From Yuukianura sp. NJ FZ-2021 (taxonomy: Eukaryota), in NCBI GenBank assembly GCA_046563655.1, contig CM102287.1, positions 2,542,001 through 2,606,000 on the forward strand: DNA of 64,000 nt, written 5' to 3'. The notes under the pieces are model-generated. The model saw nothing but the letters and a program-made list of their open reading frames with translations, did not search any database and was not told the DNA's origin. The translations under genes and the position numbers were made by a program. Shown one piece after another: positions 1,085-47,338 of this stretch (the stretch's first letter is position 1; each line of letters begins with the position of its first letter).

Positions 1085-1543
1085 ATGGCCTTATGTCAGG
1101 AGCAGTTGCTGATCGTGATGGTGGTGATCGTGGCTCTGATTGGTGGGCCTGCAGAGGGTGTTGGTGACACAAAGCCACCGAAAAGCAACATTCCGCCGAA
1201 CTTTCTGCTGGAAAATCGAGCATTCAGTGGTAAAAGAGACTTTTCTGTGGCGAAGATCTGCCAAGCGAACCCAGACTGTTGGTGGGAATTTCAAATGAAA
1301 GAAATGCCCTCATCCCCGTCACCAAGGCCCACCCCCATGCCAATGGAAACTGTACGACAAGGATACTTGGACGGTCTGAAAATGTGCTGCCGCACTCCGG
1401 AAATGCATAAGCAATGTTTCAACGACACAAAGCCAACAAATGGAAACGATGACGCACTACTGGACCACTGCGGAGGAGCAGCCACAAACCTTCCACTCAA
1501 ATTCATCTTTCCAACGTTACTCCTCGCATTCCTCAATTTTTAA
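1085..1543 (+). CDS. Secreted, putative GPI-anchored 6-Cys protein, family member 1 (in-frame ATG also at 1076)
   Basis: Signal peptide, C-x5-C...CC-x8-C-x17-C scaffold, small-residue omega region (CGGAA) and hydrophobic C-terminus. The 44-nt 5' leader is identical to that of the 16782 gene. Confidence 0.8.
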   Translation: MALCQEQLLIVMVVIVALIGGPAEGVGDTKPPKSNIPPNFLLENRAFSGKRDFSVAKICQANPDCWWEFQMKEMPSSPSPRPTPMPMETVRQGYLDGLKMCCRTPEMHKQCFNDTKPTNGNDDALLDHCGGAATNLPLKFIFPTLLLAFLNF

Positions 1544-1678: not shown

Positions 1679-2203
1679 TTATTGCTGCGTTGTGCAAGGA
1701 ATTACAGAAGGAATGAAGAGAAAGGCAAGAATTGCGAAGTGTTTGGATTTTGGGTGAGTTGACCTTTGACCTGACGTGCCCACGTAGACGCCATAGCCAT
1801 CATAAGCTCCTGGCCCACCAAGCCCACGTCTAGTCGAACTGTCCTCGGTTGTTGTTGGTGGGACGATGACGGTGGGATCCAGCACTTTCACACAGTACTG
1901 CTCCAGCTCAGCTTCATTTTGGTAGAGCATGGAGTTGAGTTCAACACACATGTGTTTTACTCCCAAGTAGCAGCATTTGTTATACGTTTTGCTGATGGCC
2001 AACGCCCAATCTTCACCTTCATCCCCGTGCTCTGGATGTTCTGGTGGCAAACACGTTTGGTTGATCCTAATTCCGTAACAAATTTCTGCTTTTCCAGTCT
2101 TTGGAGTTGTCTTTGGAGGTTGGTGGTCACAACAGATTCCTGACACTGCGCAGACAATTGCAAGCGATGTCCACAACTGCAAAGCATTTCGCTTCCACGT
2201 CAT
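1679..2203 (-). CDS. Secreted, putative GPI-anchored Cys-scaffold protein, family member 2
   Basis: Signal peptide, C-x8-C...KCC-x7-C...ELEQYC, Thr-rich stalk, RRGLGG motif and hydrophobic tail. Confidence 0.8.
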   Translation of the reverse strand: MTWKRNALQLWTSLAIVCAVSGICCDHQPPKTTPKTGKAEICYGIRINQTCLPPEHPEHGDEGEDWALAISKTYNKCCYLGVKHMCVELNSMLYQNEAELEQYCVKVLDPTVIVPPTTTEDSSTRRGLGGPGAYDGYGVYVGTSGQRSTHPKSKHFAILAFLFIPSVIPCTTQQ

Positions 2204-2573: not shown

Positions 2574-3209
2574 CTACAAGTGAAAAACCAAAAGGACAAT
2601 AATCGTTGTAAATTTTTGTGGAAAGTCAGGTGACCTTTGACCTTTGGATCTACTGTGACTGTGACCTTTGAACTCTGCATAGCCTTCGTACTTCCCGCGT
2701 CCACCGAAGCCACCTCCTCTTCTTTTGGCTAGTTTTGTCGTAGTCGTTTTTGGCGTTGTCGTTTTTGTTGTTGTGCGTTTTGGTCCATCACGTTCATTAC
2801 AGAATGCTTGGTAGTATCCAGGATCGAGGTAGAAGCGCAAGGAGTCGAAACGATCACAACTCGCGTCAGATTTCCGATCTCTGCAGCATTTGTCCATCAT
2901 GTGAGTGAGGATGCTGGACCAGTTGTAACTGGATGCTTCCAGTATTTGTACTGCGTCAATTTGATCAATGTAGGCAATCAAACAGTCTTCCTTTCGAGGA
3001 GGGTAGAGTAGATTGACGCAAATGGCCATCATAGCATTGCTCACTTCACCTTTGACCTCCAGTCCTGGCGGTGCAAACGTGAAGTTGGTCAAAACCTTGT
3101 CCCAAAGTTCCGTCAAGTTCACATTGTCAGGTTGAGCAGTAACGATTCCAGCGATTGCGAAAACCAGCATCAGCGATGGCCAGAACTGCACAATTTTTGG
3201 TTCCGACAT
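2574..3209 (-). CDS. Secreted, putative GPI-anchored 6-Cys protein, family member 3
   Basis: Signal peptide, C...C...KCC-x8-C...AFCN, TTKTT mucin-like stalk, KRRGGG motif and hydrophobic tail. Confidence 0.8.
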   Translation of the reverse strand: MSEPKIVQFWPSLMLVFAIAGIVTAQPDNVNLTELWDKVLTNFTFAPPGLEVKGEVSNAMMAICVNLLYPPRKEDCLIAYIDQIDAVQILEASSYNWSSILTHMMDKCCRDRKSDASCDRFDSLRFYLDPGYYQAFCNERDGPKRTTTKTTTPKTTTTKLAKRRGGGFGGRGKYEGYAEFKGHSHSRSKGQRSPDFPQKFTTIIVLLVFHL

Positions 3210-5281: not shown

Positions 5282-5968
5282 ATGGCTTTGTCGGGATCAG
5301 TTGCTGGTTGTGGGCATTGGATGCTTGCAGTTTTGGTTGTGGTTGGTGGAATTTGGATTGGTGGGGCTGTTGGAGCCACCACGAACACCACACTCGGTGG
5401 AGACGCAGGTCCTCGCTACCTCAACTCCACGATCTCTCTCTTTCAAAATAGAGCAAATCGTCGTAGAAGTTTTTATGATGAAAGTGAAAGTCCTTACGGT
5501 GAAAGTGGAAGTTCTTTCGGTGGAGGCGGAAGTTCCCACGGTGGGAGTGGCGGCGTAACTCTACGCAGCATTGCCTGTCCCCGTGCGACCTCTGACCCCG
5601 GCTGCATCGCTGACCTTACCTTGATTACAATGCAAAAGGACGCATACGAACGGGGAGAAACGTTTGATCATCCCTCCAACTTTCGTTACGGTATTGTGGA
5701 CTTCCTCAAAGAGTGTTGCAGTAAACCTCCTGGACCGTTCCAAAAATGCACCTCAATTGACAATCCAATGACCAAGGGCGATGATCTCTCCGTGGACACT
5801 TTCTGCAATAGTCGACACTCTTCAAACTACCGAAGTCCATTCGACTATCATTATCCTAAAGGAACCTACAAAGGACTACCAGTGCCGGAAGACCTATTGT
5901 CCCACGGCAGTCCACTTAAATCTACATTCACTCTACTTTCTCTCATTACTTTTTCACTTCTTATTTAA
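5282..5968 (+). CDS. Secreted, putative GPI-anchored 6-Cys protein, family member 4
   Basis: MALSG signal peptide, RRRS basic site, Gly/Ser linker, C-x8-C...GIVDFLKECC-x9-C...TFCN and hydrophobic tail. Confidence 0.85.
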   Translation: MALSGSVAGCGHWMLAVLVVVGGIWIGGAVGATTNTTLGGDAGPRYLNSTISLFQNRANRRRSFYDESESPYGESGSSFGGGGSSHGGSGGVTLRSIACPRATSDPGCIADLTLITMQKDAYERGETFDHPSNFRYGIVDFLKECCSKPPGPFQKCTSIDNPMTKGDDLSVDTFCNSRHSSNYRSPFDYHYPKGTYKGLPVPEDLLSHGSPLKSTFTLLSLITFSLLI

Positions 5969-6556: not shown

Positions 6557-7240
6557 ATGGCTTTGTCAGGAACAGTTGTTTGTCGTTGGCAATGGACGCT
6601 GGCACTTTTGGTTGTGATTGGTGGAGTTTGGATTGGTACAGTTGCACAATCTACGGAGTCTTCTAAAGCCAAAACTCAAAATTTGGCTAAAACTAAGCGG
6701 TTTGACATTGCCGCCATTTCTCGCATGATGAAAACTTCCCGTCGTAAGTTCAGGAACCGAGCTGCTGGACCAAACAGAAACATTCTGGAAGCGGCTTGTG
6801 ATGTGCACAAGTCAGATCCACATTGCCTTGTAGAATACTTTCTGATGACTCAACAAGTTTATGGAAAAGAAACGACCGTGGATGAAAATGACTACTTTCA
6901 AAGTGTGGATTTGATCTTTGACCTTTGCTGTACCCCGCCGCTTGGAGAAAACGAAGACTGCAGAAACCAGGGGTTGTCCACTTTGGCAACAGCAACAGAC
7001 GGAGGTGAAATCGACGACTTCTGCCTAACCCGAAAGCAGCCAAACTACCAAAACCCATTCAAAACACCTTACCAGCCCATTTCTGACTCTGGCCCATCCA
7101 ATGATCCGTCAAAAGACGGGTACGATGACTGGGCTGGCGGAGACACAAGATACAGCCGACGTAATCCAAATGCAACTAAAATGAACATCGGACTCAAGTT
7201 TCTTGTTCTTACTACTTTCTCTTTTCTACTGCTTTTTTAA
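6557..7240 (+). CDS. Secreted, putative GPI-anchored 6-Cys protein, family member 5
   Basis: MALSG signal, C-x8-C (SDPHC)...CC-x9-C...DFC and GLKFLVLT tail; tandem paralog of 5282. Confidence 0.85.
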   Translation: MALSGTVVCRWQWTLALLVVIGGVWIGTVAQSTESSKAKTQNLAKTKRFDIAAISRMMKTSRRKFRNRAAGPNRNILEAACDVHKSDPHCLVEYFLMTQQVYGKETTVDENDYFQSVDLIFDLCCTPPLGENEDCRNQGLSTLATATDGGEIDDFCLTRKQPNYQNPFKTPYQPISDSGPSNDPSKDGYDDWAGGDTRYSRRNPNATKMNIGLKFLVLTTFSFLLLF

Positions 7241-8097: not shown

Positions 8098-8652
8098 ATG
8101 GCTTTGTCAGGAACAGTCACTGGTGGTCGCTGGATGACTTTGGGTGTGGTGATGGTCATGTGTGGATTTGGACATCTTGAGTCACGAGAATTGGAAAATC
8201 ATCGAGATGTGCTGTGCGATGCTTTCGCCAAAAAGCCGGACTGCTACTTCGATTACGTGGATAAGACTAATGCTGCCAAGGGTGGTGAACCACAGGACAG
8301 GGACTACATGGGAAAACTGTTGGAGAAATGCTGTGGTGGCCTTGGAATTAGTGGATGCCGCCCGATCGACGACGCTGCGAATATCCAAGGCAGTTGGCCA
8401 GAGCTGGATGCGTGCAGATTCGATCCCACCACGACGACGGAGCCACCAAAAAAGGACGAGTCAAAACCGGACGATGAAACACGTCCGCACAGCTACAGCG
8501 GTAGTGAACCAGCGGTGGACTCAAATTTCTTGTTCTTACTATTTTTCTTCCACTCCTTTTCTAAAAATCTCCAAACATTTACATTCAAAATACTCAAAAC
8601 TTTCATAATCTCTTTCATAATTTTAAATACATACACACCAAAAGTCTGTTGA
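8098..8652 (+). CDS. 6-Cys family member 6; C-terminal tail appears frameshifted relative to paralogs
   Basis: MALSG signal and C-x8-C...CC-x7-C...C scaffold. The family tail GLKFLVLTIFLPLLF* is encoded at 8517-8564 in a different frame. Confidence 0.7.
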   Translation: MALSGTVTGGRWMTLGVVMVMCGFGHLESRELENHRDVLCDAFAKKPDCYFDYVDKTNAAKGGEPQDRDYMGKLLEKCCGGLGISGCRPIDDAANIQGSWPELDACRFDPTTTTEPPKKDESKPDDETRPHSYSGSEPAVDSNFLFLLFFFHSFSKNLQTFTFKILKTFIISFIILNTYTPKVC

Positions 8653-13516: not shown

Positions 13517-14320
13517 TTACTTGAACAAGAAAACAATTAGCAGAATGTAGAGCACGTGACCTTGAATTACTGGACTTCCGTTTCTGCATGTCTCTGTCTT
13601 GCCCTGGTAAAGCCACACGAGATCATCCATTTTGTCGATACTTTCACATCCGCTCAAATTCCTGTCGCGACAGCATCTCTCGAATTCTCTGACGAGCGGC
13701 TCTTTCAAATTTTGATTCTGCTTTTGGTTTTTCAAGATGCGTCCAAGTACTTTCGTAAAACAGGTTTTGTCCTGTGCCAATCTCAAGCACATTGCATCTC
13801 TGACGGACGGCGGAATTTTGACGATGAATGTTTCCGTCGTTTGTTCCGTTCCTCGGAGATGTTCCGATGTCGTCCGATTTTCAAAGGATTTTTCCGAAGT
13901 CAGATTTTCAAATGCTGGCGGTTGAAAAGTTGTGCCTTTTTGGGGTGGCGGTGTTGGAGTTGTGTGTTTTTGAGGTGGCGGTGCTCGCTGAACTGGGTCT
14001 GGGTTCGGGATGACCCAGCCTATTCCGGCACCCCGATTTTCCAAATTTGCTTTGGCTGCTTCTCTAGAGACATAGTAAATCGGTTTTCCTTGTGCTCGTC
14101 TCAGGGCTTTCAAGTTTTCTTGGGCTGCTCGCAGGGCCGTAACGTTTTCGGAGGATCGTTGCATCGTACGCAGCATTTTAGCAAATACGCGAAGCGCTTC
14201 TGGCGGTGGTTTGACGGTTGCTTTTGGCGGTTTTCGTGTTGGACGTCGAATTGCCAAAGATTCACTCATTAAAAGAAAAACGAAGAGAATCCAAAGACGA
14301 ACGGCGTTTGGTCCGGACAT
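13517..14320 (-). CDS. Secreted, putative GPI-anchored 6-Cys protein with a long basic, Pro/Thr-rich N-region, family member 7
   Basis: Signal peptide, C-x8-C...RCC-x7-C...TC, then NGS omega-like site and hydrophobic tail. Confidence 0.8.
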   Translation of the reverse strand: MSGPNAVRLWILFVFLLMSESLAIRRPTRKPPKATVKPPPEALRVFAKMLRTMQRSSENVTALRAAQENLKALRRAQGKPIYYVSREAAKANLENRGAGIGWVIPNPDPVQRAPPPQKHTTPTPPPQKGTTFQPPAFENLTSEKSFENRTTSEHLRGTEQTTETFIVKIPPSVRDAMCLRLAQDKTCFTKVLGRILKNQKQNQNLKEPLVREFERCCRDRNLSGCESIDKMDDLVWLYQGKTETCRNGSPVIQGHVLYILLIVFLFK

Positions 14321-16781
14321 GGCAACTTTTCACGTCAAAAGTTGTGGAAGACTGGTAAAAGTTGATACGAATGTCAAAGGTCAACAATTTGCTGTTTTTG
14401 TTCGAAAAAAAAAGAACAGAGTTTCAAAAATTTATTCAACATCTGAACTAATTTTTCAAACATTCAATTCACAGGGTAACAAAAAATACGTTTGAGAGAA
14501 AGTGCAAAAGTTTTCAGAAAATCTAAAATTTTGGAATATTTCTGAGTGTTTTGGCGTCGAAGTTATGCAAAAACCATTTTGTTTCTCCCCCAATTTTGCC
14601 CGCGGGAAAATTCTAAAAGGAAAACCACAATTTGAGTCGTTTGCTTTTACAACGCTTCTGATCATTTCCAAATTGTTTTGAATTATTTTGTGGTCCTGAA
14701 TTCAAATTGGTTTGAAATTTTTGAAATTTCGGGGTTTCATAAACTGGAGAAAGATGAAGAAAGTAATATTTGGGAGAATGTCAATTTGAGTTGAGTGGTT
14801 TCGGTTGTTCATAATTCAAAAGCGGGTGGAATGCCAAGTCCAGACAGATTTACAGAATCCCATTGTTTTCCAGGGGAAGATTTCCAGAAGAAGTGGTTTC
14901 TCTAATAGCCTAACGTAAAAGTACGTTTTCTCCATAACCTAACATGGTAAATGTACAAAATACTATGACTCTCCCCTCATAGTGCCTCGGAGCCACAATG
15001 AAGCAGGAGATTTGATTAAGGAGAAAGCAATAGGAACTCCACTTTCACTCTATTTCCGCCCTCACTACATTCCTTTACTAACAATTCACTCACTTATTTG
15101 TCAACGGCCATTTCAACTCTATGTATTACCGTAAATCTCCTAATAATGGACCACATTTGCTAAAAAATTAACATAAACTAACATTTCAAAGTTTTAAAAC
15201 TTATTTCAGAAAAAAAGTCACTTGCATTGATTTCTTGTGTAACTTTTGCGCGGTTTAAAAGAAAGACAAACTAAACTCTAAAAAAAATTATGTTTTAATT
15301 TTTGTCTCTTGTCTGATTCATTTATTTTTTCAGACGGCGTAGAATTCAAACATCAAAATATTCAAAAATTTTGAAATTTTTCACAATTGGCTATTAGAAA
15401 TTTTAAAAGTGTTAAAAATGAAAGTGTTTTTATTTGAAGTTTTACGGTACTTTTCAAATCTATTAAAGTAACACAGAAGATAAGCCGAGGAAAGTAATTT
15501 TTTAGGATTTGGATTCAGTTGTCGTTCGGAGAAAGTTTCAATTCATTCGATTCGGACATGGAGAAAGCACTTTCAAGCCAAAAAACTGTGATAACTTTTA
15601 GTCTCCAACTTTCTTTTTTGTTTACTCCAGCCTCTTTTTTGTTTCAAGTCATATTTTTAGACAAAAGTCAAGGATTGAGCAAGTTCTGAACAAGACTTTC
15701 ATAACTTACGATTCAAAATGTGCCGCCACAATTTTTGGTGGGATTAGACCCACCCTAGTCATACCCATCGTAATACATATTAATACACTTTCTCCAATTC
15801 CATCCAATTTCATTCAAGCGGATTACAAAAGTTGGAAAAACCGAATTTCGGATTTGGAAACTTTTTCCGTTTTTCTTAGAAAGATATTTGTTCTGGCTGT
15901 CATGTCGAAGCTGTCAAGGTTGCGGAAGCTCCGACTCTTGACAAATAATGCCCGCATTCCCCTGCCTGCCTGCCTGCTTGCCTGCATTCCCTGCCTGCCT
16001 GTCTGCGGAATGCAAAGGTGTGGGTGGAATAATGGTGGCAGAATTCAAAAAGACATTGGAGATAATGGTGGGACTTTGTTCACTGTCATGTCACTCGGAA
16101 CAAGGATATTGCACAAAATCCAATATCCTCTTTTACTTAGCCCCACCACGGCCCCACCGAGACCCACCACAGGAAACGCAGAACAGGAAGTCCACAGTTT
16201 GATATTCCGAACAGCTAGAGTCCTTCGACAGGACTTCAATTCACAAATTCCGCAAGGAATTGCAGCTCAGGTCAAAGGTCACCAAAGTCATGGAAAAAAC
16301 TCCAACTTTTTCTCTACACCAAAAATTTCAGTTTTTCTCTAAAAACTGAAACTCTGGAGGGAGAAAAAATTTTTTCGCACTTTCTACTTTCTCTCAAACA
16401 TTTTCTTTCAATTTTTGCCTCAAATTTTTAAAGAAAACTTGAATAAAAGTTGCAGCGTCCTGTTGTGTGTAGAAATCATGAAATCTTTCACTTTTTTTAA
16501 AAGCATTTTTTAAAATCTTTCCTAACAATTACCAAGAAAACCACGATGGTTAAAATCGCTAACAAAAATCTGTTTCTTGGCAATCCACTTTAATTTTTTT
16601 CGGAATCAAATTGCAATCCAAGTAAAAGTGTCGCTAAAGTCTCAGGTTAAATTCTGAAATACTTCAATTACTATAATATATAAATTTTATTTTTATAATC
16701 CATAATTTATAATTTTTATAATTTCTTCTATAATTCATTTGCACTGTTGCAGAGTGAAGATCTGTGTTGCGCATGGTTGAA

Positions 16782-17306
16782 ATGGCCTTGTCAGGAGGGG
16801 TTGCTGGTGGTCGTTGGATGGTGGCGTTGGTTTTGGTGGGTCTGGCCGGTGGGATCTTGGTTGGTGGGGCCGAGCCACCAATTCCAAGGAAGATGACAGG
16901 CTTAGAGATGTTTGCTATGGCCCTTCTGAACAACGCTTCTTTGATTCCTCCGAAGTTGGAACCTCGTAGTGTGAGTAGTTCGAAGGAAGATGTGCGTACA
17001 GCGGTGTGCCGAATGTACGGAACTGATCCGAAGAGTGTCATGAAAAAGCTGATCCTGGCCATACCTGAGCTCCAAGTGTTGGGAGAGGCGTACGTTGACA
17101 GGAACACTCAGAAGTGCTGTGCTAAACTGGGAGTCGCAGGGTGTGAACAGGTCGACAGAACTGCTAGCAAACAATACGATGGCTCCTTGGATCACCGCAA
17201 AACGGAAGGAAAGAGCGACAAATCCCCTCAAACCAAAATTAAAACAACGCTCAGCCTTCAGCTCAAATTTCTTGTTCTTACTGGTTTCTTAAAACTCCTC
17301 GTCTAA
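16782..17306 (+). CDS. Family member 8, 4-Cys variant with C2 and C6 lost
   Basis: MALSG signal, shared 5' leader, C...(S)...KCC-x7-C...LDH(R) and LKFLVLT tail. Confidence 0.75.
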   Translation: MALSGGVAGGRWMVALVLVGLAGGILVGGAEPPIPRKMTGLEMFAMALLNNASLIPPKLEPRSVSSSKEDVRTAVCRMYGTDPKSVMKKLILAIPELQVLGEAYVDRNTQKCCAKLGVAGCEQVDRTASKQYDGSLDHRKTEGKSDKSPQTKIKTTLSLQLKFLVLTGFLKLLV

Positions 17307-19479: not shown

Positions 19480-22400
19480 ATGAGGAAATTGACACTTCAA
19501 AATCGTTTTGGCGACTATGGGGGGAAAACGACTCTATTTTCCTGGATTTCCATTGGCTTTCTTTTGGCGTCCTTCGGAATTTCTGTAAGTACAAATAATA
19601 ACTAAACTAAGCACCGCTTGAAATTTCCTGGCCTGAGCGGATATATAAAATGTGACGAATTTTTATGCAGATTTGTCACTGCTTTCTTGCATAACAATTT
19701 TTAAATGGTGTCGAAATCAGAAAATTTTCGTCACTAAAAATTGACATATTGTGGTCAGAAAATTTTTTGGTGAAGAAAAATTTTCTGATCTTGGAAATTT
19801 ATGGCCAGTGACATTCTTGGTCTTGGATTTTTTCGGTCGTTTCTTCGGAAAATGTTTGCTTCAGGAAATTTTTTACCAGGAATTTTTTTGTCAGAAACTT
19901 TCTCTCAGGCAATTTAGCGACCTCATCTCACTTTTTGCAGGTCAAAGGTCAAGAGGACAAGCAGATGTGTGTTGTGCATGGAAAATGTGCTCCGGAGGAA
20001 CCTGGCGGTGCACCGCACTATCTCTGTCTGTGGAACAAAGAACCGGAAGTTGTCGCAGAAACTACTGCGATAAACAAGTTGCGGGAATACTGTCCAGAAC
20101 TGGTCGAAAAATACGGAAACAAGTTATGCTGCAATGCTGCGCAGATCAATGACCTTGCAGCATCTTTTGACCTTTCACTGCCCATGTTCAAGCGATGTCC
20201 CACTTGCTTATATAACTTCAGACAAGCATACTGCGACTTCCCATGCTCACCTTATCAGTATCGTTTCATCAGCGTCAACGAAACAATCGTAGAGGGAAAA
20301 CAGGAGAGTGCGAAAAGTGTAAATTTTTACATTGGAAATGAATACGTTGAGGAAACTTACGACAGTTGCAAGGACGTTGTAATGAGCAGTACCAACGAGA
20401 AGGTCATGGCGTTCATGTGCGGACCATGGGGCACCTATCACTGTACTGCCCAAAGGTGGTACGAATTCATGGGAGATAGTACTTCCAACTCATTTACACC
20501 ATTTACAATCAACTACAAGTTCATGGATGTCGTGGACGAAGCAGTTACCGTACCGGGTACCGACGGTATCGTCGGATACAACAACGAAACTTTCGCCTGC
20601 TCCGATGTTGCTCCGGTAAGTTTTTCAAACCGGTAAATTTGAACGTTTGACCTTGAATGACCTTGGAATTTTTGTAGGGAGAGACGATAGCTTGCGGCTG
20701 CGTGGATTGTTTAGGAAGTTGTCCAGCACCGGCTCCGCCGCGAATCAAGACGGAATGGGCGTTTGAATTTGAGTTTGGACCGGAAGAGTTTTTCATTACC
20801 GTTGTGACGCTGATTGGTGTACTGATTATCGTTGTACTGGCATGTGCTTTCAAGAAACAACTGAAAGTACTTGGCGCAGTAATGGATGATGCTGGACTAG
20901 CATTTGAAGAATTCATCGAATTAGTCTTCACCCGATTGGCAACTTGTAAGATTTCACCAATTTTCGACCAGAAAATCGACAATTTTCATGTTTAAACCTT
21001 TTTTGTGTCGGTTTTTAGTTTCTGCCCAATTTCCGATTTTTGTCATAATTCCTGGAATTCTGGCGGTATGCGGTCTCGCAGTCGGATTCGCGTTTCTGCA
21101 AATCACGACGGATCCGGTCGAACTTTGGGCCGCACCAACTTCGCGATCCCGTATCGAAAAAGACTACTACGACACGACATTCGTACCGTTCTACCGAAAC
21201 GAACAGCTGATCGTCACGGCCGTCGGTTTGGGCACAATCGATCACCTGACTGCCACTGGACTAGAAAACTTCGGGCCAATTTTCAATCTAGACTTCATGA
21301 AGGAATTACTTGCACTTCAGGATGCGTTAGCCTACGAAGTCTATGGAATTGACCCAGATACGGGTGAACGCGTGTACCTAGACGACATTTGCTTCAAGCC
21401 ACTTGAACCCTTGAACTCAAAATGTGCCATCATGAGCTACCTGAACTACTGGCAAAATAATTACACAAATATCCTGACAACTGCGAATCGAACTGATGCC
21501 AACGGAGAACCGATAGAAGAAGTTGATAACTATCTGGACCATTTTGAATTTTGTTCGGTCAATACCGCGGCACCAGTTGATGCCACGATGTTACAGATGA
21601 GTTGCATGGGAGATTTCGGTGGACCAATCGAGCCGCGAGTCGTTCTTGGCGGATTTCTGAACTCCAGTAAGTTTACCGGTTTGTTTTATTCCGTACCGGT
21701 TTGACCGGAAACTGTAATGGCGTTTGGCAACAGTCCCATTTTTCCAAAACTGCCAAGAATTGAGATGTAGTGCCTGTTATGGTAGCCTTCCAATTCCATT
21801 TTTTAATTGGAACCTGATGGCTCAATGGTAAAGGTTTTTCCCGGAATGAAGAAAAGTGGGTTCGAGTCCCACTCGGATCATCAATTTTTCCGTACTGTTT
21901 TTCCTTATATTTTAATTCTGTTTTCTCTCCTTAGCCTATCTTCCACCGGATCCACCGTATCAAGATGCCAACACTGCCGTCATTACGTTTATCGTCAACA
22001 ATCATGTGGACAAGCAGAAACAAAGAAAAGCAAAAGCATGGGAAGCTGCCTATATCGAGTACATGAAATCCTATGTTCAGAAAGACGGTCCAATGAAGGC
22101 CAACATGGCCATAGCATTCAGCGCTGAGCGGAGTATCGAAGATGAACTGGAGCGACAAAGCCGGAGCGACGTTGTCACCGTCATGGCGTCCTACATCATC
22201 ATGTTCCTCTACATCGCCGTTGCCCTCGGAGAGCAACATAGCTGGAAGCGACTTTTGGTAAGTCAATTCCAAAAGTTAGAAAGGTCAAATGTCAAAGGTC
22301 AAAATTTGACCTCAACTTACTTTGTTTAGGTGGACAGCAAAGTGTCTCTGGGTCTCGTTGGAGTGTCCATTGTGTTGATGTCAGTCGTGGCATCAATTGG

Positions 22401-24830
22401 ACTCTACGGATTCATTGGGGTCAAGGCAACTCTGATTGTGATTGAGGTCATTCCGTTCCTTGTACTGGCTGTCGGAGTGGACAATATTTTCATCATGGTC
22501 CAGACGCTCCAAAGAACTGAACGAAAACCAACAGAGTCAAGGCCAGAACACATCGGACGGGTCATTGGCCACGTCGCTCCTTCCATGATGCTCAACTCCG
22601 TCACTGATTCTGCGTCGTTTTTCTTGGGTAAGTGACTTTAAATTTCAAAAACTTAAATTTTCAAAAATTTGGGGTCAAAGGTCAGCATTTCAACAAATTT
22701 AAAATTTTTGTTTAGGCGGACTTTCTGGAATGCCGGCAGTACAAGCGTTTGCTTTCTACGCTGGAGCAGCGCTGCTTTTCAATTTCATGTTGCAATTCAC
22801 AGTTTTCATTGCTTTCCTGTCGCTGGATTTGAAGCGCCAAGAAGCTGGACGGTGGGACATCCTTTGCTGGTAAGTGAAAAAGCAATTACGAATTACATAA
22901 ATTACGAATTACTAATGAATTACATCCAATTACTTTGAATTTTTTCAGTATTCCTCAAAAAAGTGCTGAGAAGCCTGTGCACAAAGATGGTTGGCTGTTC
23001 AAAATTTTCAAGAACTTTTACGCTCCGTTCCTCCTGTCGTTCCCTGTTCGGATCTTCGTTCTGATTGGGTTCATCTTGTGGCTGGGTGCTTCCATGATCA
23101 TGATTCCAAAGATCGAGGTGGGGCTGGACCAGCAGTTGTCCATGCCAGAAGACTCCTATGTCCTCACCTACTTCGAAGCCATGCTCAACTACTTGTCAGT
23201 GGGGCCTCCGGTATACTTTGTTGTCAAGGATACGGGGTTTCCATACCATTTGAACCCAGAAACCCAGGATTTGATCAGAGGAGGCCAGAATCCATACTCT
23301 CTTGTGTCCCAAATCTACTCTGCCAGTAGAAGTTCCAATACTTCCTATATTGCCAAACCCGCTGCTTCATGGATCGACGACTATCGTGATTGGGCAGCCA
23401 TAGATGGATGTTGTCTGTTCAACGGAACACGGGAGTACTCCATGTTTTGTCCCAGCGGAGATCCAGATTCGAGGTAAATATGACCTTTGACCTGCTAGTT
23501 TCCTTTGAAAGTTTTTCAAGGTCATTGTTTTTTTTTTCAGGAAATGCCGACCTTGTGAGATGACTTTGGATGAGAACACTGGATTTATTTTGCCAGAGGA
23601 TTTTGAAAAGTACTTGACCTACTTTTTGCGTGACAATCCACACGAGAGTTGTCCAAAAGCAGGTCACTCGGCTTATGGTGACGCAGTGAGATACGACGAG
23701 TCAGAGGATGGGCATGTCCCAACTGCATCGTACTTCATGACCTACCACACCATTCTCAAGACTTCTGCAGATTACATTCAAGCACTGGAAGAAGCGAGGC
23801 TTCTCTCTGCAAACTTGTCTGATACACTCAACACAGGTAAAAACTTTGAAAAAATGCTATTTTTTTAGATTTTGAATTTTGGAAATTTTGAATTTCAGGG
23901 ACAAATTCCACCGTGCATGAAGTTTTTCCGTACTCCATTTTCTACGTGTACTACGAACAATATCTGACCATGTGGAGAGACACAATTCAGTCAGTCGGAA
24001 TCAGTTTCGCAGCCATTTTTGTCGTAACCTTCCTGCTGACAGGGTTCAACATCTTTTCGGCCCTGATTATTCTGCTAACTGTGGCCATGATCATCATTGA
24101 CATCGGAGGACTCATGTACTACTGGGACATTCCACTCAACGCCATTTCTCTCGTCAATCTCGTCATGGTGAGAAGAATTTCAAAAAATCTAGAATTTTGA
24201 AGAGTTTTAGAATTTCCGGGAAATTTTAACCGGGAATTACCGGGAAATGAAATGTGGAGAGTTTTTTTTTTCATTTTGAAACCTGAATTTTTGCCATCGT
24301 GTGCAACCAGAATTTCAACAAATCTAAAACTTCTAAGAATTTCGAATTTTCTGGGAAATACTCTGGGAATTACCGGGAATGTCAACTAGAGAGTTTTTGT
24401 ACCGTTTTTAAACCCTGAATTTTTTTAAATCAATTTTTTTGGTTTCTAGGCAGTTGGAATTGGTGTAGAGTTTTGTACCCATTTGACCCATGAGTTCACG
24501 GTGTCAGAGAAGGAGAGTCGCCTGGCCAGAGCTGCCGACAGTCTCGTCCACATCGGAATCTCCGTTTTCACGGGCATTACCCTCACAAAGCTCGGAGGAA
24601 TCCTCTGTCTCGGATTGGCCAAGTCACAGATCTTCCGGGTATTCTACTTCCGCATGTACTTGGCCATCGTCCTCTTCGGAGCTGCTCATGGCCTCATCTT
24701 CCTCCCTGTTCTCTTGTCTTTCATTGGGCCACCGTCCAGGAGACGCAGAAGGGCTCAGGGGACCCTTAGACCTCCACTGGACAAGGCATTCGTCTTTCAA
24801 GGGCTCCCCCCAACACCCTCCTCTTCCTAA
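19480..24830 (+). CDS. NPC1: Niemann-Pick C1 family sterol transporter, ~1313 aa; exons 19480-19584, 19941-20615, 20678-20945, 21019-21666, 21935-22257, 22330-22627, 22716-22869, 22949-23473, 23541-23836, 23899-24167, 24450-24830
   Basis: Cys-rich NPC1 N-domain ([14 protein letters not shown]), TTDPVELW, sterol-sensing domain ([17 protein letters not shown]), [23 protein letters not shown] and [11 protein letters not shown]. All GT-AG joins are in frame. Confidence 0.95.
21811..21880 (+). pseudogene. tRNA-like element (tRNA pseudogene or SINE head) in NPC1 intron 4
   Basis: A-box TGGCTCAATGG, perfect T-arm GTGGG-TTCGAGT-CCCAC, anticodon stem TTTTC/GAAGA with loop CCGGAAT, imperfect acceptor and D stems, and a T5 run just downstream. 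Confidence 0.65.
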
Positions 24831-26513
24831 ATTCAAAAATTACATTTTCACTTTCGCTGATCTTGTTAAATCTGTAATAACATTAACTTTCTCCCAAATT
24901 TATTTATTTTATGTTAGTACTTTTTAGTGTAATTTTGAATTTTGTCTTTCACTAGGAATCGAAAGTGTCAAATTAAACTAAAATGTAATCAACTTAAAAC
25001 TGTTTGTAAAGCTCTCCAGCGCTGTTCCAGCGACTTAGAAGTTGTTTCCAGCGTTTTCTCCAGCGATTGTACAAATTCCAGCGTGTAACCAAGCCTGAAC
25101 TGCCCTGGAGGAAGAACTGTCAGTAGGAAATGGATGGTTTGTGTGAAGTTTTGGGCTGTGAGGCTTAGGATGTGAATTTTCCCAGGGAATTAGCAAACTC
25201 TTTCCTCAACTTTCACTCTGCAGGATTTCTTGAGTGGAGAGATGGTTGGCAGCATATGGAAAAGTTGTGGATGAGGAAGTGAGGTAATCTGGCCTGGAGG
25301 AGGAGGAGGAGGAGGAGGGAGGAGGATGCCTCCGAATGTCCAGAAGACGGGAGGCTTAATTCCAATTCATTAGTGTCGACAGAGTCTTTTGAGAGAAGGA
25401 GAAAGTTGGAGTGAAAGGAAGATGATTCCAATCTCTCTCGTTCCATTTACTTTCTCTTTTCCAACATACGCAGCATTACATAAGAAACGTATTTGGGTTA
25501 ACACACAATTTCATCTGAGAGTTGCTAAGGATAAAACTCATCTCATCCTTCAAAGTGACACAAACACGGGTATTCTAAAACCCAGAAACGGCAGAAATCT
25601 CGGGGATCATGTTTGTCATAATTTGAATTTTGAATCTTTTCACAAACTTTCAAAATCTCCAAGATGAGGCTAATCAATCTTGCTAAAATTTCAAAAGTTT
25701 GCGAAAAGTGTAAACCGGGCTTAAGTTTTCACTTTAATAACTCCGTGTGAACTAGGCTTAAGCCCAAACTTTTCCACTTCGGTGTGAACCCGGCTTAAGT
25801 TCAGATTTTTTCTCAAACTTAAATTTTCCAAAATACTAAAAATTTCCACTTTTTAGTTTACAAAAACTCCGCAAATGCTCAAAAATTCAGTTTTTGAGCA
25901 TTTCCTTTCACTTTCTGACAAAACTAGAATTTTTTCTAGAGAGAGGAAATTCTGTTTCAGTGAAAGTGGAGAATTTGTGTGCTTAGTTTTAGAAATCTTG
26001 GGAGCGTGAACCCGTTTCGGTGTAGGATTTAAATTGGATTTTGTGGGAAGCTGAAGACGTGGTTGGTCTGCTTTTCGTTTGTTAAGGTTTAATGTCTCTC
26101 TTAAGTGAATCATTAAGGCTTACTATCATGTCCACCGAGAAACAACAACTTTCGTTTAAACGAAAGTCAAGTTGATATCAGTGGAGGAAGCGTCAGACTT
26201 AGTTTGTGGAATGGGTGGAACAAAAAGAAAATGAGTCTTAGACGGGCTTAAGAGAAAGCACTTTGGTTAGTGAAAGTGAAACGACGCTCATGGGTCAAGT
26301 AATTCCCTTCTTCTCATATCGCTTAATGGCCAAGGGCTGCTCCACACCACAAGAATCGCTGAAAAAAGCGCTGGAAAAAATTCTAGAAGCTCGAATTTCA
26401 GCGATTGGGGGAAAAGAGAGCGCTCGTTGTGTTATCAGCGATCGAGTTTCATTTGCGGTCTTTTGCTCTCGTGTCTATCGACGACTTGGTTAAGCACTTT
26501 GGAAAGCGTAACT

Positions 26514-26669
26514 GGATGCTGCCAGCATCCTACAAACTTGTGGTCAGTTCTAGGATGCTGCCAGCATTCTAGAAACATGTGGTCAGTTCTAGGATGCTGC
26601 CAGCATTCTCGAAACTGGCGGTCAGTTTTACGATGCTGCCAGCATTCTAGAAACTAGTGGTCAGTTTTA
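26514..26669. repeat. 39-bp minisatellite, 4 copies
   Basis: Units start at 26514, 26553, 26592 and 26631 (ggatgctgccagcattctagaaacNNgtggtcagttcta). Confidence 0.9.
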
Positions 26670-31156: not shown

Positions 31157-31696
31157 TTAGAAAAACTTGATTGCTGCTGCTGCAAGAAGAGCAGCGATTC
31201 CATTTTGTAGGACAGCGGTGACCTTTGCGTTAGTGTTGTCTCTTCCACCAAAAACAGCAGCCAAGGTCACGACCCAACCGACATTCAATGTCGCCGCTCC
31301 AGATCCAGGAGGAGCACGGTCCATCTTGACCCCCTTCTCTATGATCTCCTTGATCCTTTCATCCGTGCACTTCGTCAAGACGGTGTTTTGTCCAGTCCAC
31401 TTTTTCCCCTTCTCGCAACATTCCTTGATCAGATCTTCAGCAGTCGGCCAAATTTTGCCCAAATACACTTGTCTGCTGTGGAAGGTGAAACCACTGTCCG
31501 GACCTGCTTTCATCTCGGCATTCGTTTTTGCGTAGTCCTCCGGATCTGAGCAACCACTGTTCGCATATCCGAAAGCAATCCTTTCCACGGTGCCTCCACT
31601 GTACTTTGGCCCTGCTCTTTCCGTTTGGCCACTACAGCTGGAAAAGCAGACGACGGCAACAAAACCACTGATCAGCTTCATTCTGCCCACAATCAT
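31157..31696 (-). CDS. Secreted membrane-tethered 4-Cys protein, family subtype B, member 9
   Basis: Start MIVGRMK, signal peptide, GCSDP...IKECC...KCTDERIKE and two C-terminal hydrophobic segments. Confidence 0.8.
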   Translation of the reverse strand: MIVGRMKLISGFVAVVCFSSCSGQTERAGPKYSGGTVERIAFGYANSGCSDPEDYAKTNAEMKAGPDSGFTFHSRQVYLGKIWPTAEDLIKECCEKGKKWTGQNTVLTKCTDERIKEIIEKGVKMDRAPPGSGAATLNVGWVVTLAAVFGGRDNTNAKVTAVLQNGIAALLAAAAIKFF

Positions 31697-32696: not shown

Positions 32697-33260
32697 TTAG
32701 AAGAAGTTGATTGCTGCTGCTCCAAGGAGACCAGCGATTACAGCGATTCCATTTTGTAGGACAGCGGTGACCTTTGCGTTAGTGTTGTCTCTTCCCCCAA
32801 AAACGGTCGCCAAGGTCACGACCCAGGCGACATTCAATGTCGCCACTAAAGACCCAGCACCGCTTCGGTCCATCTTGACCCCCTTCTCCACAATTTCCTT
32901 GATCCTTTTATCCGTACACTTCCACAAGCTGTTAGTGTTCTCACCCTTTATCCATTTAAAGTCCTTGTCACAACATTCCTTGATCAGATCATCAGCAGTC
33001 GGCATAATTTTCCCCAAATAGTCTGCTCTTGTGAATCTCCCCTTTTCAAAAACACTGTCCGGAGCTGCTTTGAGGGCCTGCCAGCCAGATTCGTGCTCTT
33101 TCGGATTTAGGCAACCAGTATTCCCGGCACCCAAAGCCTCCCTTTCAATGGTGCCTGAAGCGTACTTTGGCAATTCCCTTCCCTTGGTTTGACCTCTGGT
33201 GCTCCCGATGCAGACGACGGCAACAACAGCCACGATCACCTTCATTCTTCCAACAATCAT
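32697..33260 (-). CDS. Tandem paralog of the 31157 gene, member 10
   Basis: Same start motif, IKECC...KCTDKRIKE and a near-identical C-terminus; flanking DNA is also duplicated. Confidence 0.8.
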   Translation of the reverse strand: MIVGRMKVIVAVVAVVCIGSTRGQTKGRELPKYASGTIEREALGAGNTGCLNPKEHESGWQALKAAPDSVFEKGRFTRADYLGKIMPTADDLIKECCDKDFKWIKGENTNSLWKCTDKRIKEIVEKGVKMDRSGAGSLVATLNVAWVVTLATVFGGRDNTNAKVTAVLQNGIAVIAGLLGAAAINFF

Positions 33261-36923: not shown

Positions 36924-39900
36924 ATGGGCCCTAAAATGTCAACTTTACTTTTGATCTTGGTGACCTTGGTGACCTGGGACAGAGGTCAAACAGAGGTCAA
37001 GGCCAATCTGGACATTGAAGGTTGTCACCTACAGTCATCAGGTCATCATCAACATCATCTTCAAAGTGATTCAGCAGTTGACACTTCAAAAACAGAAAGT
37101 GACTACGCAGACTCCGTTTTATGTCAAATCAGAACTTTACAGAGTGACCTTGACTTTGACAACTTGACTCTTCACTTGGCCGTCCCCATGGAGAAGGTCA
37201 CAACTCTCAAGGTCATGTGCAATGACCTTTTGTTCTTCGAATCAGTGCTGAGTCCAGGTCAACTCAGTGGATTCTCCGAGGTCATTGACCTGTCAATTGA
37301 GCAGTGCAAACTCAAGGTCATCACGGCAGACGCTTTTCTTGGTCTGGACAATTTGAAACACCTAAAAATCAATACTGGCAACTCAGACTGGGCTGCCAGG
37401 TCACTCGAACTGTCCAGTTCAGCTTTTGAAACTGTGAAATCTCTCCAGAGTCTCCATCTAGGCTACAATCACATGTGGGCCCTTCCACAAAAACTTCTGT
37501 GTCCCTTAGAGGCCCTTAAAGTCCTCAACTTGACCCACAATCTATTAAGTGACATTGATGACCTTGGCCTCTCCGGCTCAAATCCACCGCAATCCAGGAA
37601 AAGTACTCCAGGAATTTTCAGAAGTTCGGCTGGAAGCGACATTTTAGCGGCGACATTTCAGCCGACGTGTCTCTCTGAGCTCAAAAAGCTGGACATTTCG
37701 CACAACAGTCTGCGCCGACTCGGATCTCGTCGGTTTGAGAACCTAAAGCGCCTGGAAGATCTGCGTCTCCATGACAACTGGCTGGAGGAAGTCCATGACC
37801 TCACGCTTTTCGGTCTCTCAGGACTCAAATCGCTGAATTTGTCGTCCAATCGCTTAATCGCTCTTCCTTCTACGCTGTTCCAGCATTCCCCGCAACTTAG
37901 AAACCTTGATTTAAGAAATAACTCACTTTCTTCACTTTCTCCCGCGCTTTTCGCGCGTCTTGAGTTTTTAGTCGTTTTGGATCTCAGTAGAAATAGTTTA
38001 TCTAGCCAGTGGATGACAGTAGAAAGTTTCCGAGGATTAGTGCGATTAGTGATTCTCAATTTAAGTCACAATCAACTAACGCACTTGACCCCTGCGACAT
38101 TCAGTGACCTCTACACTTTGCAAGTGCTTGACCTTAGTAATAACTTGATTTCGTCAATTGCCGACTCCACTTTTACGCCAATGAGTAACCTCCATGAGCT
38201 CAATTTGGCCAGAAATAAGCTCGTTTCAATTGAAAGCAAGATGTTCAATGGGCTATACGTTCTGCACAAACTCAGCTTGGATTATAATCAGATCACGCGA
38301 ATTGATTTAGAAGCGATGAAAAATTGCACAAGCTTGAGTGACCTCGGATTGGTCGGAAATTTATTAACGGAAGTTCCCGAAGCTCTCCGAGGACTCCAGT
38401 ACTTGAAAACGCTTGATTTAGGTAACAAATCCTAAGTTTTAAAGAAATTCTGAATTTTGAAGAAAGTTCTGAATTTTTCTTAAGAAAGTTCTGAATTCGT
38501 CTTTTTTGTATTTTTTTTCTGAAGAAAATTCTCAATTTGTCCTCTTTTTTTTGTCTTTTTTTTTAGGAGAAAACCGAATTTCTAGAGTTTCTAACGACTC
38601 TTTCTCTGGGATGAGTCAACTGCACTCTGTTCGTTTGGTGGAGAATGACCTTGAGGAGATTCCTTCTGGACTGTGTGACCCCGTGAGTGACCTCCGTGTG
38701 TTGAATGTTGGTCAGAACAAAATCAAGAGAGTTGGGTCAAAAGCATTCGTGTCATGTCCAGAACTGAGAGTACTTCGACTGGACTCCAATGCCCTGGACA
38801 GTCTCCCGTCCAACTTGGTTCCACAGTTACCAAACCTCATCTGGCTCAATGTCTCTCAAAATCAGATTCAAACTGCACACTACTCAGCACTTCCGCCATC
38901 ACTCGAGTGGTTCGGTAAGAAAATTCAAAAAAGTAGGACTATTTTAACAAAAAAAAAATTCTGAAAAAAAAATTCTGAATTTCTTTTAAATATTAGTTCA
39001 CTTTCTGCTTTCACGAGAAGAGAAAACAAAACAAATGAAAATGACAATTTTTTTTCAGATGTGAGTCACAATCGATTGGTGGCTCTCGGTGGAGCTTCGG
39101 GTTCTGGAAGTGGAGCCACCATGGGAAAAAGTGGACTTTCTCCTGGTCATGTCCACCGCTCTAGTCATCATAATGCTAAACTCCGTTTCGTAGATGCTTC
39201 ACATAACCTTTTGACCCAACTTGACCTCAATTCAGTTCCAGCATCACTCGAAAAACTTGTGGTCAGTCATAATCGTTTGACCAAAATTCTGCCAGACACT
39301 TTTAGTCGCTCGACTCATTTGCATCGTGTGGATTTGATTGGAAATCAGCTGGAAACTATTCCATTAGCAGCACTCAGGTTCCACCAAATTCCTATGTCCA
39401 AACCACTTCCTCAATTTTCTCTAGGTAATCAAAATTTTTAAATTTTTTGAATTTTTTAAACATTTTCGAGCCAATTTCAATCTTCCATCGCGTAAAGCTG
39501 TATTAATCCAAATTCATCCGAAAACGAAAGTCTAAGAGAAAGATTTCTGCAAATATTCTCAGGAATTCCGAATTCGGTCAATATTCTCAGGAATTCTGAA
39601 GAATTCTGTGAAAATTTTTTGAAAAAGTGATTTTTTTTTGAAATTGTAGGTGGAAATCCGTTTTTGTGTGACTGTGACATGGAGTACTTGATGCGCATAA
39701 CACAACTGAGTGCAACACGTCAGTATCCAGTCGTCCTTGACCTGGATGCCATCGTCTGTCGTCTCACCTACTCTCGATCTGTGTCACACATTCCTCTTCC
39801 GGAAATGAAACCTCAAAACTTCTTATGTCCTTACACCTTCCACTGCTTCCAAACTTGCCAGTGCTGCGAATTTGACGCCTGCGGTAACTCAAATTTAAAA

Positions 39901-42900
39901 TTTCTCAACAAATTTTGAAGAAAAAGAAAATTTTGAAGAAAAATGTTGTCAAAAGAAAAGTCGTTCAGAAAAACTTGAGTTCTATCAATAGCTCTAAAAT
40001 TCATTTGAAAGTTCACTACTGCACACAGTGTCGTGAGATCCACTCAAAGTGGAAATTTTTTGTCGAATTTTTTTGTTGTATTCGATCCTAAACTGCTAGT
40101 AATGGACCAAATTGACCATAAAAAATGACCTGGACCGAAATTTTTCAAAAAAAACGAAAAATCCGAAATTCGGAGTTTTCATTTATCCGGAGCTATTTCT
40201 CGGAGTTTCTCAACCAGAAGCAATAGTTCACTGCAAAAAACGCTTAAGTTTTGAATTTCAGCCCATTCGGTTGCAAAATGGCGGAGTTATAGCGAATTAT
40301 CCGAATTTCGGGGTCAACTTTGCGAGGGTCTCCCGGGTGTTCCAAAGGGATATTCGAAGTATGCAAGGTGGCGTTGGAAAGGCATTCCCTTGGGCTACAA
40401 ATTATACCTTAACACTTTTTCGAATATACCTTTGGAAATTGAGATATGTCGCCCGGAATGAAAGCGACAATTCATGGGGGGATAAACATAGCTTATAGAA
40501 TACCGTAAAAAAATTAATGCCGAAATAGTGCAACCGATGTAGTCAATTAATGCTTACGTATTGATTGACACTAGTATTATGTATTCTGAAATAATCTGAG
40601 TTCAATCTGAACCAAGTTGATTTGTAGAATCAATTATAAATTTGTAGCTTAATGCTAATGGACCAAAGTTCCCCCCATGAATTGTCGCTTTCATTCCGGG
40701 CGACATATCTCAATTTCCAAAGGTATATTCGAAAAAGTGTTAAGGGATAATTTGTAGCCCAAGGGAATGCCTTTCCAACGCCACCTTGCATACTTCGAAT
40801 ATCCCTTTGGAACACCCGGGAGACCCTCGCAAAGTTGACCCCGAAATTCGGATAATTCGCTATAACTCCGCCATTTTGCAACCGATTGGGCTGAAATTCA
40901 AAACTTAAGCGTTTTTTGCAGTGAACTATTGCTTCTAGTTGAGAAACTCCGAGAAATAGCTCCGGATTTAAGAAAACTCCGAATTTCGGATTTTTCGGTT
41001 TTTTTTGCGAAATTTCGGTCCAAATTATTTTTTATGGCCAATTTGGTCCATTACTAGCAGTTTAAGATCGAATACAACAAAAAAATTCGACAAAAAATTT
41101 CATTTCCACTTTGAGTGGATCTCACGACACTGTGCTGCAGCCGAAATGACATTTTGATTTTGATTTCTAGACTGCTCCATGACGTGTCCCACCAACTGCA
41201 CTTGTTACCATGGTGACTCCTGGACAGCCAATGTCGTGGACTGCGCAAATTCAAACTTAACTTCCGTCCCACCGCGCATTCCAATGGACTCCACCGCTGT
41301 TAACTTAGATGGCAATTTTATCCCGGTTTTAAAAAGTCACAGTTTCATTGGTCGAAAAACTTTGAGAAGTTTATATCTCAACTCCTCCAGAATCGACTCC
41401 ATCAGCAACAAATCTTTCAATGGACTCCAGTCTCTCGAGTATCTCCATCTCCAGGGAAATCTTCTTCGCCATCTCCATGGATACGAATTTGAGCATCTCA
41501 ACAAATTAAAAGAACTTTATCTCCAGGATAACCTTATCCAGACTATCTCCAACTCTACTTTCTTATCTTTGAAAGAACTGGAAATTTTAAGACTCGATGG
41601 AAACCGAATTTCGGTTTTTACCGTTTGGCAGCTCAGTTTGAATCCATATTTGGTTGAAATCGGACTCGGAAGGAATCCATGGTCATGCGACTGTCACTAT
41701 TTCAATCAACTCCATGGCTGGGTCATTGACAACAAAAACAAGGTCATTGACCTCAGTGACATTCGGTGTGTCTGGAATGTGACAAATCAGGTTGGGCCAT
41801 ATTTGGTTCAGTACAATTCAACTTGCGAAGGGCCCTGGGCCCTTATTCAAGGGGAGCCCTTTGACCTTCAAGGGCTCCTGTCCCTTGGAGCACTTCTTCT
41901 GACGATTCTGGTGACCTTGACCTCTGCGATTTTAGTTTTCGTCTGTCGAGACAATTTAAGATTTTGGTTTCATAAAAAGTTTGGGCTTAGATTGTGTTCT
42001 GGACGAGATGATTTCAGTGAAAGTGAAAAGTGTTATGATGCTTACTTTCTCTACAGCCAAAAAGATGAAGAATTTGTGACAACAAGAGTCGTTGACGAGA
42101 TGGAAACGGTGGAAAACTTTCGGTTTTGTCTCCACTATCGTGATTTACTTTTTGAAAGTGGTGACCTCAAGGAGGTCATGACCTCGGCGCTGGACAGTTC
42201 TAAAAGTTTAGTCTTTTTCTTGTCAAGGAATTTGTTCCAGGGAGAGTGGACAAACGCAGAGTACCGTTCAGCGTTTCAAGCTCTGCTAAAAACCAGTGCT
42301 AAAAAGCTCCCCGAGGGGGTCAAGACTATGGTAATTGTGTATATTGAACCAATTCCAGAACATGAAATGATGCTGGACGTTTCGTCATGGCTAAAAAATG
42401 GCACTAACACTCTCGTTTTAAAGTGGGCAGACAAAAAATTCTGGTCAAAGTTCAAATTCGCACTGCCGGATCCGTCAGTAAGTCATTATCATTCGAACAT
42501 CACGACTTCTTCGGCAGCATCGAGTGACCGTGCCTCAAGTGGTCTCAAATTTTACACTCCTTCTGGTGGTGACCCCAACTTGACCTTTGACCCAGCTCAA
42601 AAGTACTGGCAGTACAATCACAAGTCGGACTTTGTGCAACCAGCATATAGTGAGGGGTACACTCAGAATGAAGATGACGAAAATGAAATGCCGCCGTTTC
42701 TGTTTCAGCCGAACTCCAAATCGCCAGTACCGCTCGGGAATTTTGCCAAACCGAGTTCCAGCGGAACCTCCGGGGGTTCAAGCTACTTGAATCTGGAGGG
42801 GGAACATGTTTACTCGACCTTGGACCCCCCAAGTCCCACCGCCAACATTCAAATGCCTGGTGGATACACTGGCCCCACCCAGCATCAGTACCACTGGCAG

Positions 42901-46789: not shown

Positions 46790-47338
46790 ATGAAACGATT
46801 GTTCTGTGCCGTCTTCGTCGTTTCCGTGGTCACCGCAATGCTGGAGGCCAATGACACAACCACCGATGCCCCACCTAGAGAGAGCATCGTAGAACCGATG
46901 GTGGCTCTCGTGAATCCGAATGCCACCGAGAGGCCCTTGGTGGCTCCTCCACCAGAAACAGGAATGTACGTGATCTGGTCACTTGCAATGAAGGCCTGTG
47001 CCAATCCCCACCCTCGGGGGAGGTTCAGTGACCTCGCGAAGTTGAACGAGGTCAAAGGTCACCGCTTCCCCCACAAAGCATTTTGGCTGTTCATGGACGG
47101 AGTGAAGGGCGTGGTCAGAGAATGCTGCGATGGGAAGGGCTTGTACAAGTGCACGGAGGACGAACTGGAGGAACTCACGGCAGAATATGCTAAAATTGCA
47201 AATGCTGAACTGGAGAGAAGAATTGCAGAGAAAATGGCCAAGAAAACTTCAAATGCTGGCAGTACCAAGCACTTTCTTTCTGGAATTTTTGAAATTTTGG
47301 TCATTCCTCTCTATAAGCTGTTCAAAATCTTATTTTGA
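46790..47338 (+). CDS. Secreted, putative GPI-anchored 4-Cys protein, member 11
   Basis: Signal peptide, ACANP...GVVRECC-x7-CTEDEL, SNAG omega-like site and hydrophobic tail. Confidence 0.8.
   Translation: MKRLFCAVFVVSVVTAMLEANDTTTDAPPRESIVEPMVALVNPNATERPLVAPPPETGMYVIWSLAMKACANPHPRGRFSDLAKLNEVKGHRFPHKAFWLFMDGVKGVVRECCDGKGLYKCTEDELEELTAEYAKIANAELERRIAEKMAKKTSNAGSTKHFLSGIFEILVIPLYKLFKILF

Follow-up and report, generated by a model that had tools for sequence, protein, structure and literature searches.

A diverging tandem gene family in Yuukianura sp. encodes probable surface proteins with a predicted albumin-subdomain-like domain, and one member has lost two cysteines as a pair

We analyzed a window of 64,000 nucleotides from Yuukianura sp. 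NJ FZ-2021 (assembly GCA_046563655.1, contig CM102287.1, positions 2,542,001 to 2,606,000, forward strand), focusing on the gene at window positions 16782 to 17306 (gene 16782; genes are named by their first window position). This gene belongs to a rapidly diverging tandem family whose members typically carry six cysteines (C1 to C6), and it has lost C2 and C6 together. We favor, at a probability of roughly 60%, the interpretation that these are lineage-restricted prepro-proteins with a probable glycosylphosphatidylinositol (GPI) anchor and a helical module resembling a B subdomain of serum albumin, and that gene 16782 has lost an accessory disulfide bridge as a pair. In the proposed model, the precursor would comprise a signal peptide, a pro-region ending near an [LF]xxR motif, an all-helical domain of ~70 residues, a stalk that would be short or Ser/Thr/Pro-rich, and a hydrophobic tail that is most likely a GPI signal. 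The domain would be built like one albumin B subdomain (C-x30-45-CC-x7-9-C, with a double loop C1-C4 plus C3-C5), to which an extra C2-C6 bridge would be added, joining the second helix to a last helix that folds back.

Gene 16782 is an intact single-exon open reading frame (ORF) of 174 amino acids with cysteines at residues 76, 112, 113 and 121 (codons at 17007, 17115, 17118 and 17142). Its features are as follows.

16782..17306, plus strand: focal gene, four-Cys variant of the six-Cys family
16750..16752, plus strand: candidate splice acceptor (cag) ahead of the coding exon, read from the sequence; the same leader precedes gene 1085
16773: a further in-frame ATG, read from the sequence; paralogs 5282, 6557 and 8098 begin at the MALSG Met
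16782..16871, plus strand: predicted signal peptide, residues 1-30 (hydropathy peak 2.74 at residue 16; cleavage site placed by eye)
16956..16967, plus strand: LEPR, the conserved [LF]xxR motif upstream of C1, candidate propeptide cleavage site
16989..17198, plus strand: predicted helical, Cys-braced, albumin-B-subdomain-like domain (from the alignment, a paralog model and profile matches)
17007 (C1), 17034 (Ser at C2), 17115-17120 (C3-C4), 17142 (C5), 17196 (Arg at C6), plus strand: domain landmarks
17259..17303, plus strand: hydrophobic C-terminal tail resembling a GPI signal, with no cytoplasmic part (mean Kyte-Doolittle hydropathy 1.63 over the last 15 amino acids; 2 charged residues)

The C2 position of this gene is occupied by Ser85 (AGT, 17034-17036) and the C6 position by Arg139 (CGC, 17196-17198), each one base from a Cys codon, as a sequence-only reading of the window had pointed out and as sequence and alignment confirm. 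We aligned 12 domains, comprising four from elsewhere on contig C5 and the eight encoded in the window by gene 16782 and the following paralogs.

1085..1543, plus strand: six-Cys paralog
1679..2203, minus strand: six-Cys paralog
2574..3209, minus strand: six-Cys paralog
5282..5968, plus strand: six-Cys paralog
6557..7240, plus strand: six-Cys paralog
8098..8652, plus strand: six-Cys paralog with a modeled domain (predicted local distance difference test score, pLDDT, 81.6) and a tail longer than the others
13517..14320, minus strand: six-Cys paralog with a long pro-region

In this alignment, the S and R of gene 16782 are the only departures from six invariant Cys columns; 11 of 11 six-Cys paralogs keep Cys at columns 2 and 6. 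The closest paralog, L002 (contig C5 ~7.075 Mb; 28% identity in the alignment, 32% in the search), retains both residues and aligns without gaps beside them, so the assignment of the two positions is secure. Since 29 of the 170 non-Cys codons of gene 16782 also lie one base from a Cys codon, the chance of both lost positions doing so is ~3% by our own arithmetic. The paired loss is real, and it is a single event among the 12 six-Cys-type genes.

Because C2 and C6 were lost together, we infer that they pair with each other. Six cysteines can be paired in 15 ways; excluding a vicinal C3-C4 bond leaves 12, and just two of these hold C2-C6, namely C1-C3/C4-C5 and C1-C4/C3-C5. In the profile match, C1, the CC doublet and C5 of the family align to albumin Cys124, Cys168/169 and Cys177, which argues for C1-C4 and C3-C5. 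The pairing of albumin Cys124 with Cys169 is established knowledge. The available portions of the cited sources describe this bridge as constraining subdomain IB (PMC4582931) and also give a Cys168-Cys177 disulfide (PMC11200609). In albumin, the position aligned with C2 is not a Cys, and the C6-bearing helix (model residues 72-79) falls outside the structural matches, in which residues 4-67 were aligned; on the simplest reading, C2-C6 would be an added, dispensable bridge that gene 16782 lost. The map C1-C4, C2-C6, C3-C5 is probably the correct one, as judged from sequence comparison rather than coordinates. The same map had been proposed from the sequence alone on the strength of a likeness to insulin, and it probably stands, through the paired loss and the albumin alignment. 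The reason given does not: only two pairings remain once C2-C6 is fixed and C3-C4 excluded, so agreement with the insulin map is a coin toss worth one bit.

The albumin/ECM1 type of CC-xn-C module had been mentioned as an alternative to insulin, and it is the one that our searches favored, with borderline significance. The modeled domain of gene 8098 is predicted to be all-alpha, with helices at 6-16, 18-31, 39-49, 59-64 and 72-79 and no sheet; albumin, according to the available part of PMC8508759, is likewise all-alpha without sheet. A 12-member profile searched against PDB sequences matched albumin with a nominal best E of 0.021, its C1, C3, C4 and C5 falling on Cys of albumin IB/IIB, and albumin B subdomains ranked top in the profile search and, without settling the superposition, in the structural alignment. 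Several results weigh against this assignment. A seven-member subset profile, chosen after the fact, gave no matches; profile searches from two single members found no albumin; an afamin match of three four-Cys genes (E 0.035) vanished when seven domains were used; and PF00273 was absent from every Pfam scan of a single member. Searches of the genome itself with PF00273 and PF05782 yielded no match, but their controls gave none either, so they are uninformative. The albumin signal is thus consistent in place and borderline in size, and we regard a fold-level likeness to albumin as fairly probable.

The strongest rival is that the family represents an orphan helical disulfide domain of independent origin whose likeness to albumin is convergent, since a double loop can generically be formed by an amphipathic helix with CC at its end and seven residues looping to the Cys that follows. 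This is possible, although three observations speak against it: a half-profile without the CC..C part still ranked vitamin D-binding protein (DBP) first, at the matching Cys; the sequence and structure searches converged on the same DBP residues; and an insulin A-chain profile, also CC-bearing and helical, gave 71 matches, of which the 60 listed include no albumin. Common descent of the family with vertebrate albumins and ECM1 from one ancestral module, here as a free-standing, GPI-tethered B subdomain diversifying in an invertebrate, is a tentative proposition that we rate below an even chance. The family is filed as a probable albumin-subdomain-like variant and not as albumins, because the full A+B domain is absent.

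A second rival holds that gene 16782 is a decaying copy that lost its two Cys through unlinked neutral changes, which would carry no information on pairing. The loss is indeed a single event with one substitution per change, and decay does occur in the cluster, where a four-Cys gene (L052 ~5300) is frameshifted. Gene 16782, however, has an undamaged ORF, signal peptide, LxxR motif and tail, and it retains its remaining four Cys at 10-28% identity to paralogs. If two of the six Cys were lost at random, a true pair would be hit in 3 of 15 cases, and the albumin alignment, an independent source, likewise singles out C2 and C6 as the pair to spare; decay is accordingly improbable.

The sequence-only reading had proposed an insulin fold, which is not supported: spacing, motifs and processing sites are missing, and sequence searches that find the genome's own insulin-like peptides reveal no link to the family. 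Fold searches did not decide the matter, and a matching family may lie outside the results listed. In this rival, the family would consist of highly divergent, membrane-anchored insulin/insulin-like growth factor (IGF) superfamily proteins in which C1-C2 represents the B chain and CC-C5-C6 the A chain. Label by label, the disulfide map is identical to that of insulin, and the A-chain-like strings quoted from genes 5282, 1679 and 46790 are present in those sequences. The map is nevertheless one of two possible, and the A-chain motif CC-x3-C-x8-C occurs in 0 of 15 proteins; the family has CC-x7-9-C-x17-21-C, a difference in spacing that had been conceded from the start. The C1-C2 spacing is x8 in nine of 11 members and x5 in one, so that the B-chain spacing C-x11-C is present in only one. 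A KR or RR between C1 and CC was found in only two of 12 six-Cys-type members. C-peptide basic sites are dispensable in IGF-type single chains. As a positive control, we used the canonical insulin-like loci of the same genome.

Contig C8, ~9.726-9.732 Mb and ~3.40 Mb (L023-L026): four canonical insulin-like A-chain exons

All four carry CC-x3-C-x8-C and an RxxR before the A chain. Their four-sequence A-chain profile matched 71 PDB sequences (best E 1.3e-6; the 60 of 71 listed are all insulin-family), and one of the peptides matches PF00049 (E 8.3e-7). By contrast, profiles of the family matched no insulin among PDB sequences, and Pfam scans of single members gave no PF00049; the profile search with the family alignment, suggested earlier as a check, placed albumin-type proteins on top instead. 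Alignment with hhalign to the genome's own insulin A chains reached 1.1% and 8.2%, on the CC only. According to the available part of PMC7357564, arthropod gonadulins keep only Cys placement and can escape recognition by sequence; because arthropod insulin-like peptides can thus be unrecognizable, we leave the insulin rival a very slight residual chance. The claim of a membrane-anchored insulin is to be dropped.

Three further window genes share a C..CC..C pattern.

31157..31696, minus strand: four-Cys member, C-x43-CC-x15-C, kinship to the six-Cys group unproven
32697..33260, minus strand: four-Cys member, C-x45-CC-x17-C
46790..47338, plus strand: four-Cys member, C-x41-CC-x7-C, modeled at pLDDT 71.6

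These had been cited as likewise lacking the last Cys. Their C..CC..C pattern is as described. The gap from their first Cys to CC (41-45) lies inside the C1-C3 range of the six-Cys members (30-45) and above the C2-C3 range (21-36), which fits a correspondence of this first Cys to C1 rather than C2, and C1, C3, C4 and C5 are invariant in 18 of 18 domains. An hhalign comparison of the four-Cys and six-Cys groups gave probabilities of 1.7% and 4.1%, so homology is not shown. The three genes form one clade with three domains of L052 (support 100/99, bootstrap not converged); L052 holds four related domains, 23-27 kb beyond the window, of which the one with a doubled CC was omitted from the tree. 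As a single clade without a match to the six-Cys profile, the group adds at most one event. At L052:2582-3550 (contig C5 ~2,628,600-2,629,550), a single ORF encodes two four-Cys domains with hydrophobic segments of tail-like and signal-like character between them; the doubled CC (ECCECC) is in the first of the two. L052:4882-5513 is a four-Cys gene broken across two frames just after C5, through a frameshift or an assembly error, and L052:6065-6667 is a further four-Cys copy.

The genome holds at least 12 six-Cys-type genes, as the own-genome search (98.7 Mb, 22 contigs) scores only the best candidates. This search and the flanks added three upstream genes (two in L006, one in L007) and L002, 4.5 Mb away. 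An additional 200 kb of flank contained no more six-Cys genes, and a DNA pattern of the Cys spacing run across the genome was too loose and yielded satellite noise. About 10 kb from L002, L012:9302-9901 (contig C5 ~7.084 Mb) encodes a signal peptide, C..CC..C and a hydrophobic tail; neither family profiles nor Pfam at cut-off matched it. Within the window, gene 8098 extends beyond the end of the paralog tails at 8520-8652, where its tail is less typical, possibly owing to a lost stop or small frameshift.

Each gene encodes one unit of ~70 residues in a precursor of 149-267 amino acids, and the products of all 11 window genes are hydrophobic at both ends. A loose, uncontrolled omega-site rule identified candidate sites in 13 of 15 proteins, and none in 16782 or 8098; GPI anchoring of the family appears likely from these sequence features. 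The [LF]xxR motif lies 8-41 residues ahead of C1 in 10 of 12 members, a count reached in 0 of 5000 shuffles (mean 2.95) for a motif defined after the sequences had been seen, and it suggests removal of a pro-peptide. Across the family, leaders are conserved and domains divergent: genes 5282 and 6557 share a leader 87% identical over 121 bases while synonymous sites in their domains are saturated, and the domains of the closest six-Cys pair differ with a nonsynonymous divergence of 0.28 and a synonymous divergence of 0.27, every Cys being kept. Such a pattern is in keeping with surface proteins for recognition or binding on which selection is diversifying or relaxed. The proteins would most likely serve as diversifying cell-surface binding or recognition proteins on a fixed disulfide scaffold, and not as hormones. 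We give even odds to recognition of proteins or microbes; binding of hydrophobic ligands, by analogy with albumin IB, seems unlikely, and a function other than these two equally so.

Between the six-Cys and four-Cys genes lies an NPC1-like gene (~19,800-24,900, plus strand; Pfam NPC1_N, E 3e-51, one exon). A Toll-like receptor with LRR and TIR occupies 36,924-42,996 (plus strand), and two further Toll-like ORFs (L051, L054) lie within 50 kb downstream. The Toll-like and NPC1 neighbors are no evidence of shared function. An intronless ORF at 49,379-50,299 (minus strand) has a signal peptide and matches Pfam Dioxygenase_C (E 1.8e-6); horizontal acquisition is the usual explanation for such dioxygenase genes in soil arthropods. 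The window also contains an uncharacterized multi-exon gene in four tandem copies (~55,100-62,800, plus strand; one exon scanned, no Pfam match at cut-off), a coiled-coil ORF at 44,918-45,364 (plus strand) with a weak, below-cut-off Snapin/Pallidin match (E 3e-4), and a short tandem repeat at ~26,500-26,660, one frame of which reads a repeated CC-bearing peptide and which is probably non-coding.

Beyond this genome, the collections searched, from which its kin may be absent, yielded no relatives. Protein database searches gave 0 of 2064 candidates of near length at E<=0.01 and 0 of 7997 of longer length at E<=10; an exact look-up found 0 of 10 family proteins, two ESM Atlas searches returned no usable match, and a metagenome scan with L002 confirmed 0 of 233 pattern matches. 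The sole match in the representatives library, a repetitive protein of 3904 amino acids, was spurious. The literature covered, which excludes subscription papers, contained no invertebrate or arthropod albumin-domain protein and no collembolan account of a GPI Cys-rich family of this kind. The available portions of PMC8508759 and PMC5480655 confine the albumin family to vertebrates, and in the latter a PF00273 survey of 290 animal species gives one mosquito sequence, ascribed to transfer, as the only insect match. If common descent holds, the albumin building block is older than vertebrates and may have started out as one subdomain bound to the surface; an invertebrate stand-alone subdomain would then offer a testable precursor for the origin of albumin and show the module at work in the form of a small surface protein. 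Should the likeness prove convergent, this is still an unannotated, fast-evolving surface family in which a natural Cys-pair deletion maps one disulfide.

In comparison with known systems, the B subdomains of serum albumin (IB, IIB, IIIB) and of its relatives DBP, afamin and alpha-fetoprotein (PF00273; PDB 1j78, 5okl, 8x1n, 1ysx) share with the family the C..CC..C unit, with gaps of x43 and x7 against x30-45 and x7-9, and an all-helical build that is predicted for the family. This C..CC..C repeat is called the best-conserved feature of albumins in the available part of PMC6965021. Fatty acids, haem and sterols are ligands of the albumin superfamily. Albumin has three A+B domains of ~190 residues (~176-195 residues, usually in three copies, in the parts available of PMC5480655 and PMC8508759), whereas the family has one stand-alone subdomain below Pfam detection, to which it adds the putative C2-C6 pair, a predicted folded-back last helix, a pro-region, a GPI-like tail and an invertebrate host. 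ECM1 (PF05782) is a multi-repeat soluble protein; no member gave a Pfam match to it, and no ECM1 structure appeared among the search matches. It resembles the family in its albumin-type CC-xn-C double loops and in being secreted (PMC5480655, available part). The insulin/IGF/relaxin/gonadulin superfamily (PF00049) has in common with the family six Cys, a CC doublet, the same pairing by label, secretion and helices, but the family differs in Cys spacing, has no conserved C-peptide sites and shows no profile similarity, and the true insulin-like genes lie on contig C8. Odorant-binding proteins, nsLTP, the RECK/DB module and GFRalpha were set aside by their Cys patterns, which we take to be distinct. 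As a functional analogy, Ly6/uPAR proteins likewise combine a signal peptide, one disulfide domain, a GPI-type tail and tandem expansion, but on a three-finger beta domain, unlike the predicted all-helical domain of this family.
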